The translations under genes and the position numbers were made by a program. A DNA stretch of 64,000 bases from Bacteroidales bacterium (GTDB taxonomy: Bacteria > Bacteroidota > Bacteroidia > Bacteroidales > WCHB1-69), in contig JAKSMC010000010.1 in NCBI GenBank assembly GCA_024400835.1, positions 3,071 through 67,070 of the forward strand, written 5' to 3'. A model generated the notes under the pieces. It had not been told where the DNA came from, did no database searches, and saw only the letters and a program-made list of their open reading frames with translations. Shown here piece by piece: positions 2,784 through 37,911 of the stretch; position 1 is the first letter of the stretch, and each line of letters starts with the position of its first letter.

Positions 2784-4235
2784 TTATTGTTTATTTCTAA
2801 TAAAAGGATTGTCTTCTTCTTCTTGTATGTTAATAGGATAATGTTTCTGCAGGTAGTCATACAGACCATCTTCCGGGAAAGGTATGTAGCGGTCGATGAT
2901 TTGCCCGTTGTCCTTCATTATCATATATTCTGGCAGTGTCTCTATGCCGTTCTCCATCAGCCAGTCGTAGTTGCCGTCAAAGTGAAGTATCGGCCAGGTG
3001 AACATCTCTTCGTATTTCTTGCAGAATTTCTCGTATTGCTCGCGGTCCGGATCGATGCTGATACTGATGAAATGCAACTTCTCGCCGTAGCGTTTTTGAA
3101 ATTCCTGCATGATGATCATTTCACGGATACAGTCAATGCAGTCACTTTGGAAAAGCTGGACATAGATGTCTTTTCCTTCGAATTGTTTAAGGGAAGTCTT
3201 CTTTCCCTTGCTGTTTTTTAAAGAAAGGCTACGGTCTATCTCCAGATTTGGTGTGAAACGAGCTAATGCGTTGTCAATGTAGATGATGTGTTCTGGGAAA
3301 TGTGAAGAAGCCTTGATGTATTGCAGCAGTTTGACGGTGTTGCCGGCGTCAAATTCTTCGTTGTCATGAAGCTCGATGAGGTTGAGGATGAGCACGAGTT
3401 CGCGGATACGTTCGTTGGTCAACATAGGGTCACGTCCCGTCTCGTTGAACAGTGTCAGATAGTCAGGCTCCTCGTTGATGGTCCTGGACAGGAGGTCTTT
3501 GCTGATGTATCTGGAGTTGTACAGATAACCGCTGTAGTTTTCGGCAAACAACATCATGTATGCCGGGTTGTTGTACAAAATGTAGTCGTTGTCGAAATAT
3601 TTCTGATAGAATTGGCGGCTCTCTTTGGAAAGACAGAGTTTGTCAAGCATTCCGCAGGTGTAGTAGGCGTAAGACTGATAGAAGTTCAGCGGGTTGTACT
3701 GTATGTCGAAATGGTTGTGCAGCAAGTCGGTCAGCGTGTCGTATGCGGCCATGTCGTGGTCATAAGTGATGCGGAATCCGTAGTAGTTCATGGCGCGGCT
3801 GAAGTAGTTGCTGAACCGGTTGATTTTGTAATTGAGGTCGTTTGTGTCGGTGTTGTCCGTGGTGATTTGCAGATAGCCGCCGTATTTTTCAGGATTGACG
3901 AGTTGGAAAAGTACAGTGTCCACGGTGATATGGAAGTTGTAGGAGTTGTTGGGCACCACGAAGAATTCGGCTTTTGTAGTTCTGATGGCGAGTTGCGCCA
4001 TTTTAATCTGTTTGGTGGAGTAGGAGAGTTTGAATTTTCCGTTTTTGTCAATCTTGTCGGAGGAAACTACTGTCGGGATGTTGTTGAGAAGGTCATCGAA
4101 AATAAGCAGCCGGATTTCCTCATTGGCGGCAAACGGGGCGTCACCGGTAATGGTCACGGGCTGTTGGGCCTGCACCAGCCGGGGGGCGATGAACAGACAA
4201 ATCAACAGCATAATATGAGTGACACGGAAACGCAT
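2784..4235 (-). CDS. Exported protein with C-terminal thioredoxin-fold domain
   Basis: ORF 2784..4334. The start is set at MRFRVTHIMLLICLFIAPRLVQAQ (ATG 4235-4233), which overlaps the coaD stop as TAATG. The C-terminal part has a redoxin-like pattern: YVQLFQSDCIDCIREM. Confidence 0.8.
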   Translation of the reverse strand: MRFRVTHIMLLICLFIAPRLVQAQQPVTITGDAPFAANEEIRLLIFDDLLNNIPTVVSSDKIDKNGKFKLSYSTKQIKMAQLAIRTTKAEFFVVPNNSYNFHITVDTVLFQLVNPEKYGGYLQITTDNTDTNDLNYKINRFSNYFSRAMNYYGFRITYDHDMAAYDTLTDLLHNHFDIQYNPLNFYQSYAYYTCGMLDKLCLSKESRQFYQKYFDNDYILYNNPAYMMLFAENYSGYLYNSRYISKDLLSRTINEEPDYLTLFNETGRDPMLTNERIRELVLILNLIELHDNEEFDAGNTVKLLQYIKASSHFPEHIIYIDNALARFTPNLEIDRSLSLKNSKGKKTSLKQFEGKDIYVQLFQSDCIDCIREMIIMQEFQKRYGEKLHFISISIDPDREQYEKFCKKYEEMFTWPILHFDGNYDWLMENGIETLPEYMIMKDNGQIIDRYIPFPEDGLYDYLQKHYPINIQEEEDNPFIRNKQ

Positions 4236-5488: not shown

Positions 5489-8400
5489 ATGAGAAAAAAC
5501 CTTTTGATGCTAGGAATCGTGCTGATGCTTGTCTCAAGTACTTTCGCACAACATTTCAATGTTACTCGCAATGACTACGAACAAGTAAACATCTCTTTTA
5601 CTGCCGCAGACATTCAGACTGCTGTTGAAAAAACGCAGCATGGAACCTTTACCAAAATTGAAATGGAAGACTACGGCCTTTCTACCGAAGTGGGCAAACC
5701 GCAGCTTCCCGTCATGTCCAAATTGCTCGAAATCCCCGTCTGTGACTCTGTGATTGCCACGGTGACCAATGCTCAGTATGTGGAAATGGATGCTGCTGAA
5801 TTGGGCATCAATAACATTTTGTACCCGGCACAACCTTCTTACCCGAAATCTTTTGTCGGTGAGAAACAATTCGTGCTCAACAACGATGTCTACGCAAGAA
5901 ACGCTTTCTATTCCGCACCCCTGGTCCGCGTGGAAAAGACTGGCATCATGCGTGATGTTTGTCTGGCTAACATCTACGTTTCTCCGGTTGCATACAATCC
6001 CGTGACCAAGAAAATTCGCATTTACCGCAACGTTGAGGTCGAGGTTTCCTATGTGAACGCTAATATCCCGGCCACATACGAATTGAAAACCAAATATGGC
6101 AGCCCGATGTTCCAAAGCGCTGCTGAGGTGGTTGCGAACCCGATGCCGAGAACTCGTGACGAATTCAACGGTTCTCCTATCAAATATCTCATCGTCGCTC
6201 ACTCTATGTTCCAAAACAATACTGATTTGCAGAACTTTGTAAACTGGAAAAAACGCCTTGGCTATCTCGTCGAGGTTGCCTATACCAGTGATCCTAATGT
6301 GGGAACTACGAATACTTCTATCAAAAACTTCGTCAAGTCCAAATATACGAATGCCACAGCTGAAGATCCGGCTCCGACCTTCCTCTTGCTGATTGGCGAC
6401 CACGCTCAGGTTCCGGCTACTTCCAGTACAGAACAGAACTCTCATGTGACGGACCTCTATTTCGCAAGCTGGACCGCCGGCGACAATATCCCCGATTGCT
6501 ATTACGGCCGTTTCTCCGCTGAAAATGTGGATCAGTTGTCTCCGCAAATCGAAAAGGCTTTGATGTATGAACAATACACCATGTCTGATCCTTCCTATGT
6601 GGGAAAAGCTGTCCTGATTGCAGGTACCGATAGCTATTGGTCTTCTTCTCATGCAGATGGACAAATCAATTACATTTATAACAACTATGTAAACACAACA
6701 AGCACTACCCACAATTACAGCACGGTGTACAAACACAATTACAACAGTTCTTCACAGGCTGCAACTATCCGTGGCGAAATCGGCGCCGGCTGTGGCTGGG
6801 CCAATTATACGGCGCATGGTAGTGAAACAGGTTGGTACGATCCCGAATTCAGCAATTCCCAAGTTTCTGCTATGGGCAATGAAGGTAAATATGGTCTGAT
6901 GATCGGCAACTGCTGTCTTACAGGTAAGTTCAATTACAGCAGCCCCTGCTTCGGCGAAGTCTTGTTGAGAACACCGAAGAAGGGTGCTATGGCCTACATC
7001 GGTGCCTCCGAAGTTTCCTATTGGGACGAGGATGCTTACTGGGCTGTCGGTGTCCGCAGCAACGTGAACGCCAATATGACTTACAATGCGGCCAACCTCG
7101 GTGCATACGACAGAATCTTCCATACACACGATGAAGCTCATGCCAATTGGTGTACAACTTTGGGCGGATTCATGACGGCTGGTAACCTCGCTGTTCAGTC
7201 TTCCAGCAGTTCGAGAAAGAAATACTATTGGGAAATCTACCACATCTTCGGTGATCCCTCCATCAAACCGTATTTGGGCATGCCTTCTACAATGTCAGTC
7301 TCTTCTGATGACGTCATTATGATAGGATCCAATACTTACCAAGTCAATGCTGCCCCGTATGCTTATGTGGCATTAACTTTGAACAATGAATTTGTGGCTG
7401 CTGCCTTTGCAGATGCTTCTGGCGCAGCAACACTCACATTGCCCACTTTGACTCCTGGCGAATATGAACTGGCAGTTGGCGCTCAAAACTACGTACAATA
7501 TTTCAAAACGGTGAATGTCATCGTTCCTTCCGGCCCGTATGTCGTAGCTAAAGGCATTGAGATTGCCAATGGCGAGAATCCTATCAATGGTACTACATTC
7601 CATTATGACCTTACTCTTGAAAACCTGGGCGTCGACGCTGCTACTAATGTCTCTGCTACAATGACCTCCTTGACTAGCGGCTACACAGTAACTCAAGGTA
7701 CTGCTACAGTCGGCAATATGGCGGTGGGACAAGTTTCCAATGTTGCCAACGCATTTGCTATTTCCATCCCGCAAAGTGCAATTGACCACGAACATGCCAC
7801 CTTCAGAGTTGACGTTAGTTGGCAGGGCGGCAGCTGCTCTAAAGAGGTCGTCCTCACTGTTGTCGCTCCCGATGTGCGTGTCACTTCCGAGGAAATTCGT
7901 CCGGTTGCAGGTACTGCACCTAACTTCGCTCCTGGTGACCAGGCTGTTGTCGCAGTTACTCTTGCCAATCTCGGCCACGCTGATGCTCAGAATATAGTTC
8001 TTGACGTGACTTGTAACTATTCCGGTGTCGTTGTGTCTTCTCCTTCCCAACAGGTTAGCTATCTGGCACAATCTTCCAATACTGCTATTTCATTCGACAT
8101 CCAAATCAGCGCAGATGTCCCAACCGTATCTTTCGTTCCGCTTTATGTACATACCTTATATAATGGCAATCACTTCATTGATACTATTATGCTGACCGTC
8201 GGTAATGCTATGGAAACTTTCGAAACCGGTGATTTCAGCCTGTTCAATTGGAATACTAGCAGTTCTAATCCGTGGCAGATCACGAATAGTGCACCGTATG
8301 CAGGCACGTATTGCGCACGCTCTAAGCAAAGCTTGGCAAACAGTTCGAATTCCCAATTGACTATTACGATGACGGCTACGATTGCCGGTGACATCTCCTT

Positions 8401-31344: not shown

Positions 31345-31395
31345 CAAGACCGACGGCAGGAGGTCGAAGCGGAATCTCCACAATATACTGTTGAG
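31345..31395 (+). repeat. Copy 1 of a 51-nt direct repeat bracketing the FISUMP gene pair
   Basis: CAAGACCGACGGCAGGAGGTCGAAGCGGAATCTCCACAATATACTGTTGAG differs from 37861-37911 by 2 mismatches. It is preceded by two hairpins with ATTCCGC/GCGGAAT stems (31259-31290 and 31339-31375). Confidence 0.8.
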
Positions 31396-31703: not shown

Positions 31704-32924
31704 ATGAAAAAGATATTCCTCGCTTTAGTCTTGTTGGCAGCCGTTATGCAAGTGACATTCGCGCAGTGTGGATTTGTGACCGTTGCCTACGATGACGACG
31801 TCACGCGCAGCGCCGCGTCGGTGGGCCAGATGTTCACCTTAGGCATCTCCAATGACGGCAACTATGCTAACGAAGGCCTCCAGCAGTCGTTCCTCTACCG
31901 TGGCAACGACACGCTGCTCTACGAGAACAGCAGCTACCCCGTGGCCTATCGACCGGCCGAACGCATTCCGGCAGGCAATCCGCTGAATGTGGAAGTCGGC
32001 GAGACGCCGGTCTATCTGCTGCCCACGCAGGGCCTCGACTCCCTGATCAGCGTGATGGCCTACGGTGTGACCTTTGTCAACGACACCACTGTGGTGGCTC
32101 CTTACAACGTGTGCGAGCACAACTTCGGCTTGCAGCAGCCCTTAGTGCTGCCCGACGGCTCCGTGCCGCCTGTGCAATATAGCAATAATAAACCCGCCAC
32201 GTACCCCGTGGGCGCTGCCACTTCCGTGACCTGGAACTTCAGCGTGGCCGACAAGTCACTGACCGATATCCAGCAGGTGAACGTCAAGTTCCCACCCTGC
32301 GGCACGGACAATTTCAATGCTGACATTGCCAATTATCCGTATTCCACCACTTTGCCGGATCCTTTTGTGGCCACCGACTTTGAAAACAACGAGTACAGCA
32401 CGGTGCGCATCGACTGCTACTGCTGGACGGCTGAGAACCTGAAATCCACGAAGTACGCTGACGGAGAAAACATTTCCAATCCTATGGCATACGTGAGTGC
32501 TGAGCACCCTGATGCGGCCGCCAACGTGGCCCGCTATGGTTATCTTTACAACTGGGATGACGCAGTGCGCGCGCCCCTCGCTCCTGAAGCCACCGAAGTG
32601 CAGGGTGTCTGCCCCGATGGCTGGCATCTGCCCACGGAGGCAGAGTTCGCAAGTCTGGCCAACCACTCCGCCTTCGAACTGATGTCAACCACGGACTGGC
32701 TTAGCGGCGAGGGTACTAACGCTACGGGCTTCACCGCGCTGCCCGCCGGCAAATATACAGACGTCCGTTTCGAGAACCTCTTGGGCGAAACCCACTTCTG
32801 GACCGAGACTTCCGTGTCAGCCACCATCGCCCGCTACTGCTCCCTGATGCACGGCTGCTCTGAACTCGCCAACTACAACGGCAACAAGGTGAACGGAAAA
32901 AGCGTCCGCTGCCTGAAAAATTAG
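31704..32924 (+). CDS. Secreted protein with one C-terminal FISUMP (Fibrobacter succinogenes major paralogous) domain
   Basis: Signal peptide ending FAQ. The C-terminal YSTVRIDCYCWTAENLKSTKY...YGYLYNWDDAV...GVCPDGWHLPTEAEF...GFTALPAGKY...FWTETS...SVRCLKN has the TIGR02145-like pattern. Confidence 0.8.
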   Translation: MKKIFLALVLLAAVMQVTFAQCGFVTVAYDDDVTRSAASVGQMFTLGISNDGNYANEGLQQSFLYRGNDTLLYENSSYPVAYRPAERIPAGNPLNVEVGETPVYLLPTQGLDSLISVMAYGVTFVNDTTVVAPYNVCEHNFGLQQPLVLPDGSVPPVQYSNNKPATYPVGAATSVTWNFSVADKSLTDIQQVNVKFPPCGTDNFNADIANYPYSTTLPDPFVATDFENNEYSTVRIDCYCWTAENLKSTKYADGENISNPMAYVSAEHPDAAANVARYGYLYNWDDAVRAPLAPEATEVQGVCPDGWHLPTEAEFASLANHSAFELMSTTDWLSGEGTNATGFTALPAGKYTDVRFENLLGETHFWTETSVSATIARYCSLMHGCSELANYNGNKVNGKSVRCLKN

Positions 32925-33002
32925 GGCTCAGAAATTAGGGTTCAGGGCTTAGGGCTTAGGGATGTCTACTAATCTACTAATCTACATCTCTACCCATCTA
33001 CA
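32921..33002 (+). repeat. TTAGGG-like G-tract (G3N4 x4) followed by TCTACnnn x5 tract, starting in the FISUMP-1 stop codon
   Basis: The GGG runs are at 32924, 32938, 32945, 32952 and 32959. The TCTAC-period-8 tract spans 32965-33002. Confidence 0.85.
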
Positions 33003-33036: not shown

Positions 33037-36000
33037 ATGAAAAAAATCTTACTAACATTAGTTTTGCTGATAGGCATTGTGGTCGGGCTGTTTGCCCAGA
33101 AGCTGACCTATCAGGCGGTTATTCGAGACAATAACCAGCAATTAGTGGTGAACACGGCCGTGAAGGCAACCGTCACCATCACATTCACCACGGGCGTTCC
33201 GTACGCTGAGGAGGTGAACGGCAGTACTAATATCCACGGTCTGCTCTCCTTCGAGTTTGGAGACGAAACGCTGGCCGGACGCGACTGGACGGGTGCGACC
33301 ATCGCCGTGAAGGTGGTGAACGCAGCCACACCAAGCACGGTGTATGTGAACGACGAGGCGCGTCCCGTTTCCGCAGTGCCTTACGCACTGAACGTGAACG
33401 GACAGTCTATCCAAAACTACCTGACAGAGCACAATTATGTGGATGAAACGGAATTGGACAGCCGCCACTATCTGACCTCTGATAGCGCTGTGATTACCAC
33501 GATGCAAGGCAACATTGCGAATCTGACGCAGCACACCACCAAAAGCGCCATCCGCGACAGCGTGGCAGGCCAGATTCATGACAGCATTTCTAATATGGCG
33601 AATGTTTCCCATATCCACACCAATAAGGATTTGCTTGATACATACAACCAAACTAACGCCGACTTGGCGGATGCCGTAGCCAAAAAGCACGCGCACGACA
33701 ATGCCGCTGTTTTAGCTGCGACCACAGCACCATACACCGATGCCGACAGTATCAAATTGAAGGGTATTGCAGAAGGTGCTGAAGTGAATGTGCAGGCTGA
33801 CTGGAACCAGAGCACTACCACAGCTGATGACTACATCAAGAACAAGCCGACGATTCCGACGGTTCCGACCAATGTTTCTGCCTTCAACAACGATGCCGGT
33901 TATATCACCGCCACGGACGTTCCCGCACAGGTGAACGCTGATTGGAATGCCACAAGCGGAACGGCACAAATATTAAACAAACCGGAACTCTTCAGCGGCA
34001 ACTACAATGATTTGTCCAACAAACCGACGATTCCTGCCGCAGCCAACAACGCGACACTGACCATCCAGAAAAATGGAACTTCTGTGGGCACCTTTACCGC
34101 CGACGCCTCTTCTGACAAGAGCATAAACATCACGATACCTACCACCACGAGCGAGTTGACGAACAACAGCGGGTTCATTACCACTGCCAATGTTCCTACC
34201 AATGTGAGCCAGTTGAACAACGATGCAGGCTATGTGAGCAACAGCAACTGTCCGACGGTTGACCTTTGCGAATTATATAATATGATGACGTCTTTGCAAA
34301 ATACTATTGCCCGTCAGGACAGCATGATCAACGCGCTGAACAACGAACACCATTCGTTCACCTGCGGCACCTCTACGGTTTCCGACCACGAAGGCAATGT
34401 GTATAACACCGTGAAGATAGGCACCCAGTGCTGGATGGCCCAGAACCTGAGAACTTCTACAAATGCCGCAGGTGCAGGCAATATTTACACTCCTACAGCT
34501 TCTGAAGTGCCTGGTTATGACGTAAACACCTACGGCCGCCTCTATGACTGGGCAGCCGTGATGCAGGGCGCTTCATCCAGTGATGCTGTTCCTTCTGGTG
34601 TGCAGGGCATCTGTCCTACCGGCTGGCACGTGCCAAGCGACGCGGAGTGGACGCAGCTTACCACCTACGTGAAAAGCAAGTCCGAGTATCAATGTGACGG
34701 CGCTGACAATATTGCCAATGCGTTGTCCGCTGCCATAGGGTGGAGTTACAATACCAGCGAAGGTTGTTATGCGGGCAGTATCAGTAGCACAATAAACCTC
34801 ACAGGTTTTTCGGCCGTTCCCGCCGGCTTATACAATGTCCGTTCCTTAGATTTTAGCCACAGCGCCTTCTTTTGGAGTACTACCGAGTCCGATAGCAACA
34901 ACGCGTACTACCGTAACCTGAGCAGCAATGACGCCGAAGTGTCCCGCTGGGACTTCTCTAAGGATTACGGTCACTCTGTCCGCTGTCTCCGCGATGCGAG
35001 CATTGGCGGTGGTGATAACCCTTCCGAACCGGCAACGATGAGCTGTGAACAGGTGATGGAATGTATGGGCGACACCCTCGGCCAACTCAACGCGAAGATA
35101 GAAGCACAGGGTGCTGAAATTGAAACACTGAATGGCACTGTAACCTCACAAGGCAACACCATTGACAGCCTCGCTCACTTGGTTGACTCCCTCTCCAACC
35201 TTCCACACGGCGGCAACACTCCAGCCACATTCACCTGCGGTTCTTCCAAGGTCAAGGACGTTGACAACAACGAATACAACACCGTGGCCATCGGCAACCA
35301 GTGCTGGCTGAAGGAGAATCTGAGAACGAAGACACTTCAATACGGCCAAGTATGGACTAAAACAGATGTGGATTCCGCAATCTACGGTCGCTACTATGAT
35401 TGGCAAGCCGCAATGCAGATTGAACAAGGTAATAGTACGAGTTATACCGCAGGAGATAAGCATCGCGGCATCTGTCCTGCCGGCTGGCACGTGCCGAGCG
35501 ATGCGGAGTGGACTGCACTGACCGACTACGTGAAAAGCAAGTCCGAGTATCAATGCGGCGGCAATGCTGCAAATATCGCCAAGGCGTTGTCCCAACCTAC
35601 GGGGTGGAGCAATACTGATACAGGTTGCAATGCGGGCAACACGGGCGACAAAGCGAACGCCACCGGCTTTTCGGCTGTTCCCGCAGGTCTTTGCTTCTAC
35701 GGCAGTTTCGAAGATTTCGGCGACGACGCCTGCTTCTGGAGTGCTACCCAGGACGATGACTTCGACGCTTGGTGTCGGAGCCTGTACAGCAACGCCTCCT
35801 ACGTGGTCAGTAGATCCGCCACTGGGGAGTACGGTTTTTCCGTCCGCTGTCTCCGCGATGCGGGCGTGGGCGGCACGCCGGGCGAAAACGAGACTGGTGG
35901 CACAACGCCCTCCGCACCGGCAATGATGAGCTGCGAGCAGGTGATGGAATGTATGGGAGACACCCTCGGCAGACTCAACGCGAAGATAGAGGCACAGGGC

Positions 36001-37740
36001 AATACTATCGACTCTCTCGCCAACTCGGTTGACTCCCTCTCCCGCCTCATCCCTGACTCGCCCGGCATCCCGACTGACACGTTCATCTGCGGCACCTCTA
36101 CTGTGACGGACCACGAGGGCAACGTCTATAACACGGTGCAGATTGGCGACCAGTGCTGGACGAGGGAGAACATGCGCTGTACGACCTCCCCGAGCACGGG
36201 TACCAACATCCTGGAGTTTCCTGCCAGCAGTTACACGTATTCAGGCAAGAAGGCGTACTACCCGAATGACGACGCCTCCAATGTGGCCACATACGGTCTG
36301 CTATACAACTGGAATGCCGCAGTGGATACCTTCAACACGGCGTATGGAGAGACGAGCACAAATACCAGTTTAAGCAATGCGGTAAGTGTTACGTTCAGTG
36401 GCAACCGCAGAGGCATCTGCCCCGTTGGCTGGCACGTGCCGAGCGATGCGGAATGGACACAGCTGACCACGTATGTGGGCAGCCAGAGCGAATACGTGTG
36501 CGGCAGCGACAACACGAACATTGCCAAGGCCTTGGCCTCCACCACGGGCTGGAGCAGCAATTCTAACGATTATGTTCCAGGCAACGACCCATCAACGAAC
36601 AACGCCACCGGCTTTTCTGCCGTTCCCGCTGGCAACTATAGCGGTAGCTACCTCGCTTTCGGCAACTACGCGTATTTCTGGTCCGCTACCCGGAGCACTA
36701 GCAACACCGCCTACAACCGAACCTTGTACTACAATAACGCCAACGTGAACAGCGGCTACCACGCTAAGTACTACGGCTACTCTGTCCGTTGTCTTCGCGA
36801 TGGCGGCGTTGGTGGTGCGCCTGCGACCAACGAGAGCGGCAGCGCGGGCAACGCCGGTGGCAGTCCCGACAGCGGCTGCTGCACCGAGCTTGGCGCACGC
36901 ATGGACAGCCTGCAGAACGTGATTGATGGATTGCAGAATACCGTCTCTTCCCAGGACAGCGTGATCAACGCACTGAACAACGAACTCCACCCATTTGTCT
37001 GCGGCACCTCCAAGGTGACGGACCACGAGGGCAACGTCTATAACACGGTGCAGGTAGGCGACCAGTGCTGGACGAAGGAGAATATGCGCTGCACGACCTC
37101 TCCGAGCACGGGAACCAGCATATTGGAGTATCCTGCCAGCAGTTATTCCTACACGGGAAAGAATGCGTACTACCCGAATGACAACGCCTCCAATGTGGCC
37201 ACCTACGGTTTGTTGTACAACTGGTGTGCTGCGGTGGATACGTTCAACACGGCGTATGGGGAGACGAGCACGAACACTGAGTACAGCAATGCGCCAAGCG
37301 TTACGTTTGGCGGCAACCGCAGAGGCATCTGCCCCGTTGGCTGGCACGTGCCGAGCAATGCAGAGTGGGACACACTGACCAGCTATGTAAAGTCACAATC
37401 GCAATATGTAAGCGAAGGTTGTACGGGTACGGATAATGCTAATAGTACCTATTGCATAGCCAAGGCGTTGGCTTCCACCACGGGCTGGAGCAGCAATTCT
37501 AACGATTATGTTCCAGGCAACGACCCATCAACGAACAACGCCACCGGCTTTTCTGCCGTTCCCGCTGGCGTCTACGGCGGCAGCTACGGCCGTTTCGGCA
37601 ACGACGCGTATTTCTGGTCCGCTACCCAGAACTCTAGCAGAAACGCGTACGACCGCGGCCTGGACTATGGCACCACCCTCGTGGACCGCTACGGCAGCAG
37701 TAAGTTCCTCGGCTTTTCCGTCCGCTGTCTCCGCGATTAG
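33037..37740 (+). CDS. Giant (1567 aa) secreted fibre-like protein with four FISUMP lectin-like modules
   Basis: A signal peptide is followed by the N-terminal KLTYQAVIRDNN module. A tail-fibre-like region follows (SHIHTNKDLLD, KHAHDN, NKPTIP..NNDAGYIT repeats). Four modules of the form F.CG.S.V.D..GN.YNTV.IG.QCW...VRCLRD then lie at nt 34357-34995, 35230-35859, 36082-36801 and 36994-37737, separated by coiled-coil-like linkers. Confidence 0.85.
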   Translation: MKKILLTLVLLIGIVVGLFAQKLTYQAVIRDNNQQLVVNTAVKATVTITFTTGVPYAEEVNGSTNIHGLLSFEFGDETLAGRDWTGATIAVKVVNAATPSTVYVNDEARPVSAVPYALNVNGQSIQNYLTEHNYVDETELDSRHYLTSDSAVITTMQGNIANLTQHTTKSAIRDSVAGQIHDSISNMANVSHIHTNKDLLDTYNQTNADLADAVAKKHAHDNAAVLAATTAPYTDADSIKLKGIAEGAEVNVQADWNQSTTTADDYIKNKPTIPTVPTNVSAFNNDAGYITATDVPAQVNADWNATSGTAQILNKPELFSGNYNDLSNKPTIPAAANNATLTIQKNGTSVGTFTADASSDKSINITIPTTTSELTNNSGFITTANVPTNVSQLNNDAGYVSNSNCPTVDLCELYNMMTSLQNTIARQDSMINALNNEHHSFTCGTSTVSDHEGNVYNTVKIGTQCWMAQNLRTSTNAAGAGNIYTPTASEVPGYDVNTYGRLYDWAAVMQGASSSDAVPSGVQGICPTGWHVPSDAEWTQLTTYVKSKSEYQCDGADNIANALSAAIGWSYNTSEGCYAGSISSTINLTGFSAVPAGLYNVRSLDFSHSAFFWSTTESDSNNAYYRNLSSNDAEVSRWDFSKDYGHSVRCLRDASIGGGDNPSEPATMSCEQVMECMGDTLGQLNAKIEAQGAEIETLNGTVTSQGNTIDSLAHLVDSLSNLPHGGNTPATFTCGSSKVKDVDNNEYNTVAIGNQCWLKENLRTKTLQYGQVWTKTDVDSAIYGRYYDWQAAMQIEQGNSTSYTAGDKHRGICPAGWHVPSDAEWTALTDYVKSKSEYQCGGNAANIAKALSQPTGWSNTDTGCNAGNTGDKANATGFSAVPAGLCFYGSFEDFGDDACFWSATQDDDFDAWCRSLYSNASYVVSRSATGEYGFSVRCLRDAGVGGTPGENETGGTTPSAPAMMSCEQVMECMGDTLGRLNAKIEAQGNTIDSLANSVDSLSRLIPDSPGIPTDTFICGTSTVTDHEGNVYNTVQIGDQCWTRENMRCTTSPSTGTNILEFPASSYTYSGKKAYYPNDDASNVATYGLLYNWNAAVDTFNTAYGETSTNTSLSNAVSVTFSGNRRGICPVGWHVPSDAEWTQLTTYVGSQSEYVCGSDNTNIAKALASTTGWSSNSNDYVPGNDPSTNNATGFSAVPAGNYSGSYLAFGNYAYFWSATRSTSNTAYNRTLYYNNANVNSGYHAKYYGYSVRCLRDGGVGGAPATNESGSAGNAGGSPDSGCCTELGARMDSLQNVIDGLQNTVSSQDSVINALNNELHPFVCGTSKVTDHEGNVYNTVQVGDQCWTKENMRCTTSPSTGTSILEYPASSYSYTGKNAYYPNDNASNVATYGLLYNWCAAVDTFNTAYGETSTNTEYSNAPSVTFGGNRRGICPVGWHVPSNAEWDTLTSYVKSQSQYVSEGCTGTDNANSTYCIAKALASTTGWSSNSNDYVPGNDPSTNNATGFSAVPAGVYGGSYGRFGNDAYFWSATQNSSRNAYDRGLDYGTTLVDRYGSSKFLGFSVRCLRD
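36082..37737 (+). repeat. Recent tandem duplication (period ~912 nt) forming FISUMP modules 3 and 4
   Basis: 36082-36801 and 36994-37737 are near-identical over their first ~340 nt and over the block CCATCAACGAACAACGCCACCGGCTTTTCTGCCGTTCCCGCTGGC. They diverge in the last ~170 nt. The linkers at 35038-35112 and 35927-36001 are also near-identical. Confidence 0.85.
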
Positions 37741-37775
37741 ACAAATCGATAATTGACAATTGAGAATTGACAATA

Positions 37776-37810
37776 GGGCTTCGTGCGTGTTTCGTGCGAA
37801 GCCCTTTTTC
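37776..37810 (+). terminator. Intrinsic terminator of the giant FISUMP gene
   Basis: GGGCTTCGTGCG-tgttt-CGTGCGAAGCCC (two G-U pairs), followed by TTTTTC. Confidence 0.7.
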
Positions 37811-37860: not shown

Positions 37861-37911
37861 CAAGACCGACGGCAGGAGCTCGAAGCGGAATCTCCACAAT
37901 ATACTGCTGAG
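37861..37911 (+). repeat. Copy 2 of the 51-nt direct repeat bracketing the FISUMP gene pair
   Basis: CAAGACCGACGGCAGGAGCTCGAAGCGGAATCTCCACAATATACTGCTGAG. Confidence 0.8.

Follow-up and report, generated by a model that had tools for sequence, protein, structure and literature searches.

The gene at 33037-37740 (forward strand) of the window, by which is meant the whole 64,000-nt stretch analysed (positions 3,071 to 67,070 of contig JAKSMC010000010.1 in the Bacteroidales draft assembly GCA_024400835.1), is a single unbroken open reading frame (ORF) of 1567 codons, without internal stop, that encodes a fibre-like protein with four modules of the FISUMP family. The reading that best explains it, held here with a probability of about 0.8, is that of a secreted fibre adhesin, made by an uncultured Bacteroidales bacterium of the herbivore gut, at least two heads of which have been written by a diversity-generating retroelement (DGR) whose cassette has been lost in this strain, and the modules of which are shuffled by recombination. 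In outline, a signal peptide would export the fibre and a beta-rich N-terminal domain, similar to that of the mosaic adhesive trimer (MAT) fibres of Bdellovibrio, would hold it on the cell; there would follow a stalk of phage-tail-fibre-like repeats and then four FISUMP lectin-like heads on short coiled coils, the fibre being probably a surface-mounted trimer. In a DGR, a reverse transcriptase (RT) would make an error-prone copy of a template repeat (TR), the errors falling at adenines, and this cDNA would take the place of the stretch between the DNA coding for GFSAVPAG and that coding for SVRCLRD. At least in heads 3 and 4, and probably also in head 2, the last ~45 codons would thus be variable regions (VRs), in which ~20 surface codons are rewritten (AAC to NNC) with the scaffold untouched, and the ~20 rewritten residues of each head may form its ligand-binding face. 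The cassette, which lies behind a spacer in another strain, would have been deleted in the window strain, leaving the tips most likely frozen; separately, recombination would shuffle segments and modules to give 2-4 heads.

Adenine-directed differences in the module tails

Profile searches place four stretches of the protein in the FISUMP family, both with TIGR02145 (440.6 bits against a cut-off of 41.65, E 6e-133) and with PF09603 (Fib_succ_major; 431.8 bits against a cut-off of 33.9, E 4e-130), and all four modules terminate in SVRCLRD, just as an earlier note on this DNA had described. That note had also taken modules 3 and 4 for a recent duplication, near-identical except for the sharply diverged last ~55 codons, and had seen in this the diversification of a ligand-binding tip. 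The tails are exceptional, diversified and presumably ligand-binding; the route, however, is adenine-directed mutagenesis by a DGR rather than ordinary divergence, and the duplication proves to be neither recent nor near-identical outside the tail. The features on which the argument rests are listed below, in coordinates of the window.

33037-37740, forward strand: fibre ORF of 1567 aa, with signal peptide, MAT-like N-domain, phage-fibre-like stalk and four FISUMP modules with coiled-coil linkers
34357-34995, forward strand: FISUMP module 1 (aa 441-653)
35230-35859, forward strand: FISUMP module 2 (aa 732-941)
36082-36801, forward strand: FISUMP module 3 (aa 1016-1255)
36994-37737, forward strand: FISUMP module 4 (aa 1320-1567), a mosaic paralogue of module 3
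35689-35826, forward strand: putative VR of module 2, with the type-2 skeleton xCFxGxFxxFG...
36634-36768, forward strand: VR of module 3 (aa 1200-1244), written from the template TR1 of contig L125
37570-37704, forward strand: VR of module 4 (aa 1512-1556), with the same skeleton as module 3
31704-32924, forward strand: upstream gene and candidate partner, 406 aa, with a signal peptide, an N-terminal half of unknown type and one C-terminal FISUMP domain

The same two-gene locus, made up of the 406-aa gene and the giant gene, lies on five other contigs (L001-L005), and a paper in which FISUMP (Fib_succ_major) is the domain targeted by DGRs in 43 proteins (PMC11661182) prompted a codon-level comparison of the tails. 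Between the VR of module 3 and that of module 2 in L001 there are 35 base differences in 20 codons, distributed 15/17/3 over codon positions 1/2/3; none of the changes is synonymous, 12 codons are altered at both positions 1 and 2, and the changed codons are of the NNC/NNT type (e.g. AAC/CTC, AGC/TAC and GGC/ACC). The first 126 codons (378 nt) of the same two modules are 98% identical in nucleotide sequence, and since double hits in 12 codons stand against a background divergence of ~2%, stepwise point mutation cannot account for the module 3 tail. When the tails are aligned with the TRs of four real DGRs of the genus, 30-33 of these 35 positions prove to be adenines in the template (Fisher p 1e-14 to 1e-16).

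The same partition recurs elsewhere. In the comparison of modules 3 and 4, 37 of 49 VR differences lie at TR-A sites, and many tail pairs across the five loci have an identity of 0.90-0.97 at non-A sites versus 0.40-0.53 at A sites. Modules 2 and 4 have this contrast as well (0.90-0.95 at non-A versus 0.40-0.53 at A sites), and the VR of module 2 is 92-95% identical to its alleles in L002 and L003, which have the type-2 skeleton in common with it, at non-A sites and 47-53% at TR-adenine sites. Two comparisons serve as controls: module 3 of L002 and module 3 of L003 are near-identical, and the tail of module 1 (34828-34962) is a single base different from its L001 allele. A further, internal control is provided by the 406-aa gene, the FISUMP tail of which differs between strains mostly at third codon positions (e.g. 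5/5/15 by position versus L005) and thus evolves normally, as a static sequence.

The type-2 skeleton also recurs in Bacteroidales metagenome-assembled genomes (MAGs) from horse faeces, JAKSMG01 and JAKSMD01 (L115-L118), which are assigned to different genera; in eight FISUMP modules of these two MAGs, every fixed position of a 35-nt pattern has the same base as in the window. The recurrence suggests that one type-2 template family circulates across genera.

The cognate template and the states of its locus

The cognate TR was found by a protein-database search with the translated inferred type-1 template, which leads to asparagine-rich TR pseudo-ORFs. One of these, P0122, is a short Asn-rich pseudo-ORF on L125, a contig of 2446 nt recorded in four samples, the layout of which is as follows, in coordinates of that contig.

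L125 1-13: end of a FISUMP gene (...CCTCCGCGATTAG)
L125 14-95: spacer (~80 nt)
L125 269-453: TR (TR1), ~170 nt beyond the spacer
L125 543-1235: bAvd-like ORF (PF22296, E 2e-4)
L125 1235-2389: reverse transcriptase (PF00078, E 6e-18)
L125 2332-2376: terminator hairpin, matching window 37769-37809

Computed over 126-127 non-A positions, TR1 is 98.4% identical to module 3 of the window at non-A sites, with 18 of 20 mismatches at TR adenines (Fisher p 1.7e-8), and 99.2% identical to module 2 of L001, with 22 of 23 mismatches at TR adenines (Fisher p 8.8e-12). The non-A identity is 90.5% for module 4 of the window (32/44 mismatches at TR adenines, Fisher p 1.3e-10) and 78% for module 1 (29/57, Fisher p 3e-4). 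The TR/VR homology spans the GFSAVPAG codons to the last SVRCLRD codon. The tails of at least modules 3 and 4 were thus written by DGRs, with the VR of module 4 either older or written from a drifted template. For module 2 the closest template is a type-2 remnant in L002, from which 27 of 40 mismatches arise at TR adenines and to which it is 90% identical at non-A sites; its tail, too, was probably DGR-written.

The spacer of L125 has its counterpart immediately behind the giant gene's stop codon in two relatives, with 87% identity in L001 and 89% in L002, and the L125 terminator matches the terminator behind the giant gene in the window, L001 and L003. In the window this region consists of two elements.

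37741-37775, forward strand: empty site, 35 nt from the stop codon to the hairpin, with neither spacer nor cassette
37776-37810, forward strand: intrinsic terminator hairpin (GGGCTTCGTGCG...CGTGCGAAGCCC, then a T run), also present in L001, in L003 and at the 3' end of L125

Through the shared spacer and terminator matches the locus can be arranged in four states. The cassette is complete in L125; in L002 a TR remnant is left; L001 has retained the spacer, with the cassette absent; and the window has neither. The L002 state is that of a half-decayed DGR, as a gene called at 6938-7270 and taken for a 110-aa 'FISUMP fragment' is actually the TR remnant (an Asn-rich pseudo-ORF), followed by the terminator and a thioredoxin gene, without Avd or RT. 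We infer that the cassette was lost in the window strain rather than gained in L125.

The source genome of the window, a 3.0-Mb draft in 60 contigs that is 98% complete, gave no match to the RT profile PF00078 and none in tblastn with the RT and Avd of L125. It contains no TR-like repeat, and a scan for repeats with A-biased mismatches gave only unrelated interspersed repeats. With neither TR nor RT in this genome, the VRs of the window are orphaned, and the four tips are most likely static now, as frozen products of past mutagenesis. Two kinds of candidate were rejected along the way: a single AAC/AAT-rich stretch considered as a TR is the tail of an Asn/Gly-rich lipoprotein, and three matches to PF05635 (Avd-like) are unrelated, the best lying in an exporter operon. 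Searches beyond the source genome were likewise without a further cognate template. The exact type-1 skeleton pattern retrieved no TR from the genome, viral or metagenome contig collections; the exact type-2 pattern retrieved nothing from metagenome contigs and only VR alleles (in the horse-faeces MAGs) from genome contigs; and BLAST of the inferred TRs against 55 congeneric genomes and 152 from the family found real FISUMP DGRs, none of them cognate (~0.8 non-A identity).

An RT is present in 10 of the 24 congeneric genomes searched. Bona fide DGRs that target a FISUMP tail (L025, L027, L030, L052, L053, L054 and L122) have adjacent RTs, and 84-100% of their TR-to-VR mismatches arise from adenine. 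Two of them have single-head fibres of the same genus as targets. The targets in L025 (G003, 1117 aa) and L027 (G002, 1738 aa) have, like the window protein, a signal peptide, an N-domain of the YQAVVR type and FISUMP at the C-terminus, the VR being the tail of the C-terminal FISUMP domain; L025 has the DWNQ...DDYIKNKP and HDSI stalk motifs of the window protein, and L027 has collagen tracts together with NKP(T/S) and NDAG(Y/F) motifs. They differ in having one head and their own adjacent TR and RT, whereas the window protein has four heads and no DGR, and their TRs reach only ~0.65-0.8 identity to the window's tails at non-A sites. A FISUMP-targeting DGR lies also on a viral contig (L099), and the relatives of the FISUMP module in IMG/VR are distant (<=40% identity), one of them with a DGR. 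Three more DGRs of the genus, L024 (G013:C21), L026 (G011:C21) and L029 (G012:C178), have 93-100% of their mismatches from adenine and targets that the FISUMP profile used does not match; L024 has two variable regions for its one template.

Architecture, module mosaic and surroundings of the gene

The remaining parts of the protein, from the N-terminus to the last linker, are as follows.

33037-33096, forward strand: signal peptide (aa 1-20), likely signal peptidase I site LFA/QK, no Cys
33097-33411, forward strand: N-terminal domain (aa ~21-125), rich in beta strands and putatively of the Bdello_MAT_N type (NF053851)
33412-34248, forward strand: stalk (aa 126-404) with HIHTNKDLLD, KHAHDN and NKPTIP...NNDAGY repeats
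34249-34356, forward strand: linker before module 1 (aa 405-440), a coiled coil that opens with the Cys pair CPTVDLCEL
34996-35229, forward strand: linker 2 (aa 654-731), with a Gly-rich hinge, the Cys motif SCEQVMECMG and five clear heptads (SlyX-like)
35860-36081, forward strand: linker 3 (aa 942-1015), of the same type as linker 2
36802-36993, forward strand: linker 4 (aa 1256-1319), with a Gly/Ser hinge, a CCTELG motif and heptads

The ORF with its signal peptide and stalk motifs is as the earlier note gave it. The signal peptide, as read from the sequence by eye, runs MKKILLTLVLLIGIVVGLFA/QK, and an AlphaFold2 (AF2) model places a helix at aa 4-12. The first cysteine does not come before residue 405; the signal peptide is therefore of the signal-peptidase-I type, and the lipobox Cys that would end the signal peptide of a lipoprotein is absent. 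The C-terminal domain (CTD) of type IX secretion system (T9SS) cargo, whether type A (TIGR04183) or type B (TIGR04131), has no match in the protein at E<=0.1, and a genome-wide TIGR04183 search returned ~98 genes, none within the interval of the giant gene (C2:36107-40810), in a genome that encodes SprA. The absence of both lipobox and T9SS signal, as noted earlier, thus stands.

For the N-terminal domain, a diverse set of 12 family members gave 11 matches to NF053851 (best E 2.5e-12), and the window protein matches it at 21.9 bits (E 1.2e-4), below the 60-bit cut-off. The AF2 model of this domain is beta-rich, with six strands and a pLDDT of 86-94 over aa 21-110, and neither a sequence search nor Foldseek gave a significant homologue in the PDB. 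The stalk, with two NKPTIP and two NNDAGY motifs in addition to HIHTNKDLLD and KHAHDN, matches annotated tail fibres over aa ~226-340 by tblastn (Dulem virus 41, 5e-20; Synechococcus phage S-H34, 1e-11; S-B68, 1e-7), as well as phrog_38190 (E 6e-6), which is consistent with the exported, fibre-like protein that had been proposed; the same stalk repeats recur in many giant proteins of the genus.

The linkers, too, are of the heptad type that the note had recognized, with I/V at position a and L/Q at d (e.g. IEAQGAE IETLNGT VTSQGNT IDSLAHL VDSLSNL) and a SlyX-type coiled-coil match of 30.4 bits, just over threshold. Linkers 2 and 3 have a 92-nt stretch in common that is 90% identical, the end of the linker before module 1 is 92% identical in nucleotides to the end of linker 4, and the linker 4 type also precedes the second module in L001. 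A Cys motif opens each coiled-coil linker (CPTVDLCEL at 34249-34275, SCEQVMECMG at 35038-35067 and 35926-35955, and CCTELG at 36874-36885), and these motifs might staple the chains together by disulfides where each coil starts. Among 120 homologues, 18 contain at least seven collagen G-X-Y triplets, and 14 of the 18 have the same N-domain; the collagen tracts are indirect evidence that would argue for trimers in the family.

As for the heads, AF2 models module 3 (36082-36801) as a single chain with a pLDDT of 97.4. Foldseek of this model found nothing in the PDB at E<=0.001, its best matches, both weak, being snake C-type lectins and the lectin tip of Bd2740 (E 0.17); a good match is obtained with phage FISUMP proteins of predicted structure (BFVD, E 7e-15). 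A sequence search of the whole protein against solved structures was without a match, a weak sequence match to Lcl_C/DUF1566 was recorded (E 8e-4), and the FISUMP family appears to be without an experimental structure.

When modules 3 and 4 are aligned, they are 79% identical overall, with the differences unevenly spread, but the tail singled out by the earlier note is not alone in being divergent. Segment A (the first 110 codons) has 87% nucleotide identity, with a synonymous divergence (dS) of 0.56 and a ratio of non-synonymous divergence (dN) to dS of 0.15, and it is this dS which means that the duplication is not recent. Segment B (the ~25-33 codons after GICPxGWHVPS) has no detectable nucleotide homology and an 8-codon indel. 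Segment C (38 codons, to NATGFSAVPAG) has a dS of 0.11, its first 114 nt being 97% identical, and the tail (the last 56 codons) has 72% nucleotide identity, a dS of 0.38 and a dN of 0.37, with dN/dS ~1 overall and 1.8 in the core. Recombination at the two most conserved motifs has also replaced or homogenised some parts outside the tail, and blastn found no donor for the divergent patches in the source genome. A segment-wise comparison with 401 modules from 120 homologues likewise gives a mosaic, in that the nearest relative of each window module switches by segment. For module 3, segment A is best matched by module 2 of P0003 (98%), segment B by module 1 of P0004 (100%) and segment C by module 4 of the window itself (100%), and the tail has <=64% identity to anything save one strain-level allele.

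The protein family is very large (2409 matches among 8000 candidates scored), and its sources, where named, are all uncultured Bacteroidales. In the related loci, L001-L004 have an N-terminal region nearly identical to that of the window, and L005 (P0012) is more diverged, with ~83% DNA identity there. The flanks of the window are 94-97% identical to those of L001 and L003, and these three are therefore alleles of one locus. The number of heads is nonetheless two in L001 (P0003), three in L002 (P0004), L003 (P0005) and L005 (P0012), and four in the window, which bears out the expectation that module number would vary among strains with closely related N-terminal regions. Homologous recombination at conserved motifs and linkers would shuffle segments as well as whole modules and so yield the 2-4 heads per strain.

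The gene sits among housekeeping genes (a penicillin-binding-protein (PBP)-type transglycosylase, ispD, a SulP permease and a deaminase), with no phage genes around it, and this setting, together with the signal peptide, marks it as a cellular gene and not part of a prophage; a prophage tail fibre is ruled out, the resemblance to tail fibres being confined to the stalk repeats. The 406-aa gene stands beside the giant gene in 5 of 5 related loci, even where the outer flanks differ, and may be a functional partner of the fibre. The source genome contains ~31 FISUMP-containing ORFs. One further feature brackets the gene pair.

31345-31395, no strand assigned: 51-nt direct repeat 5' of the gene pair, its partner at 37861-37911, the pair 96% identical

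The 51-nt repeats do not mark a boundary specific to the cassette: they are an interspersed element, with more matches of 34-51 nt on five other contigs of the genome, and the other-strain metagenome contigs L001 and L003 terminate exactly at them. Other short repeats were seen in passing. A TTAGGG-like run (TTAGGGCTCAGAAATTAGGGTTCAGGGCTTAGGGCTTAGGG) at 32921-32961 begins where the 406-aa gene has its stop codon, and is followed by short repeats of the CTAATCTA/CATCTAC type ahead of the start of the giant gene. A conserved intergenic repeat of ~80 nt (GGGGACTTCTATT...AAAATTCAAAG), which the scan for repeats with A-biased mismatches had picked up falsely, is found at several gene starts of the source genome (C6:856-955, C35:2170-2263 and C45:100179-100260).

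Alternative explanations and comparison with known systems

Several observations weigh against the reading of a DGR-written fibre that has lost its cassette. Module 1 has no demonstrable DGR signature (78% identity to TR1 at non-A sites), the tail of module 4 is only 90.5% identical to TR1 at those sites, and module 2 has only a drifted remnant TR (~90%). L125 is a 2.4-kb contig with just 13 nt of the target gene; it is linked to the giant gene by the shared spacer and terminator, not by a continuous assembly, and no longer recorded contig joins its RT to a full target gene. A draft of 60 contigs leaves room for a DGR on an unbinned mobile element, and the relatives are all known from metagenomes assembled from short reads, a procedure that can join repeated modules wrongly. 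On the structural side, every match to the MAT N-domain lies under the NCBIfam cut-off of 60 bits, and with no significant solved homologue (the best being the weak Bd2740 match, E 0.17) the C-type-lectin fold is a lead, not a result.

An origin of the tails without any retroelement, by point mutation under strong diversifying selection and gene conversion among FISUMP paralogues, would suit a tail dN/dS of ~1-1.8 as against 0.15 elsewhere, the evident activity of recombination among modules and the ~31 FISUMP ORFs as possible donors in the genome. It is nonetheless very improbable and already contradicted by the TR match, as the changed sites coincide with TR adenines, the 12 doubly changed codons come with zero synonymous changes in the VR and a ~2% background, a template that reads AAC at precisely these codons, with an RT downstream of it, lies behind the same spacer, and the genome holds no donor for the divergent patches. 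Another possibility is that the VRs are still rewritten in trans, by a DGR on a phage, plasmid or conjugative element that is unbinned or visits horizontally. DGRs are known to have remote targets, which tend to be missed in metagenomes (PMC8144416), all modules retain the 5' GFSAVPAG and 3' SVRCLRD homology that bounds TR1, the viral contig L099 bears a FISUMP-targeting DGR, and module 3 was diversified after a split with only ~2% divergence in adjacent DNA. However, RT, Avd and TR were not found in the 98%-complete assembly; module 1 (window/L001) and module 3 (L002/L003) are identical or one base apart, so that there is no constant hypermutation; and between modules 3 and 4, 10% of the non-A sites are mismatched, differences that a shared active template would erase. 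Rewriting in trans is on balance unlikely. Still doubtful, if somewhat less so, is a broader idea, that one DGR cassette, whether behind the gene or on a mobile element, rewrites several heads, internal ones included, through the GFSAVPAG/SVRCLRD borders as universal homing sites, which would make orphan tips live landing pads for circulating DGRs. Were multi-head rewriting to operate together with module shuffling, the MAT-type fibres of herbivore-gut Bacteroidales would carry a combinatorial, multivalent adhesin repertoire.

The remaining alternatives concern the gene as assembled and the protein as folded. The four-module order could be a short-read mis-join of paralogous modules, the true gene having fewer or reordered heads, since stretches of 92-117 nt recur among the modules with 90-100% identity, the comparison loci are all metagenome contigs and the contigs of relatives break at nearby repeats. 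This is quite improbable, given that the exact 1567-aa protein occurs on two recorded contigs, the longer of 83.7 kb, that the reading frame is open over every junction, that the identical patches are shorter than typical read pairs and that intact versions with 2 and 3 modules, joined by junctions of the same types, are present in independent assemblies. Rather harder to dismiss, though we tend to disfavour it, is a monomeric, 'beads on a string' multi-lectin protein of the surface or periplasm, in which the heptad linkers are flexible helical spacers; the sub-threshold score of the MAT N-domain and the confident folding of the FISUMP model as a single chain would fit it, but I/V at heptad position a, the collagen tracts in homologues with the same N-domain, the family-wide N-domain homology to fibres shown to be trimeric and the tail-fibre-like stalk repeats all weigh against it. 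On the whole, then, a secreted fibre with DGR-written heads, a lost cassette and shuffled modules is the reading preferred here.

The prototype DGR with a C-type-lectin-like target is that of the Bordetella phage BPP-1 (mtd-avd-TR-brt), and the usual DGR target has one C-terminal variable region next to the retroelement. The system described here is like known DGRs in the adenine-specific differences between TR and VR, in its AAC-rich template, in the position of the VR at the C-terminal end of a binding domain, in the order of TR, bAvd-like gene and RT downstream of the target (L125) and in a TR/VR homology that ends at the last codon. It is unlike them in having several VRs in one protein, two of these in internal modules, and two template families (type 1 for modules 3 and 4, type 2 for module 2), and in a window strain without the cassette and with no RT or TR in its genome. 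With phage tail fibres and receptor-binding proteins the protein has in common its stalk repeats, the occurrence of FISUMP in large phage proteins (BFVD and IMG/VR loci) and the mosaic exchange of segments; the signal peptide and the housekeeping neighbours set it apart.

A third comparison is with the MAT fibres of Bdellovibrio bacteriovorus (Caulton et al. 2024, PMC10769870). By definition these have a signal peptide, then a beta-rich domain of ~130 aa, and a trimeric fibre whose adhesive tip can be exchanged. The tip of one of them, Bd2740, is a C-type-lectin trimer, the only trimeric match of which is Mtd, the prototype DGR target, and the MAT N-domain is likewise without a PDB homologue according to the authors; Bacteroidetes are not mentioned in the supplements of that paper (PMC10769870). 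The window protein resembles MAT fibres in its long fibre region, its modular, swappable adhesive C-terminal parts, its lack of an obvious anchor and the weak top Foldseek match of its FISUMP model to the Bd2740 tip, and as it has no Peptidase_S74 match and carries FISUMP at the C-terminus, it would be a MAT of the NS74 type, the subfamily that ends in an adhesive tip other than the S74 chaperone-protease. It differs in phylum and lifestyle, in having several heads in series rather than one tip, in its coiled-coil linkers as opposed to beta-prisms and in its DGR-diversified tips, and membership in the MAT family is not established, as the sequence scores below the NCBIfam cut-off. The N-domain would nevertheless link a large, uncharacterised family of Bacteroidales FISUMP fibres to the experimentally studied MAT fibres of Bdellovibrio, and suggests that the two have in common a way of being mounted on the outer membrane that requires neither a lipid anchor nor a T9SS signal.

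The case is a refinement and not a new principle, since DGRs are already known, as are orphan variable regions and the targeting of FISUMP by DGRs. What is unusual is the combination: a single MAT-like fibre has several VRs, which derive from two template families and of which two are internal, and one locus gives a four-state series of cassette decay. The four-state locus is a natural series in which to follow how DGR targets become orphaned, whether internal modules accept homing, and how hypermutation and recombination jointly vary the adhesins of gut Bacteroidales.

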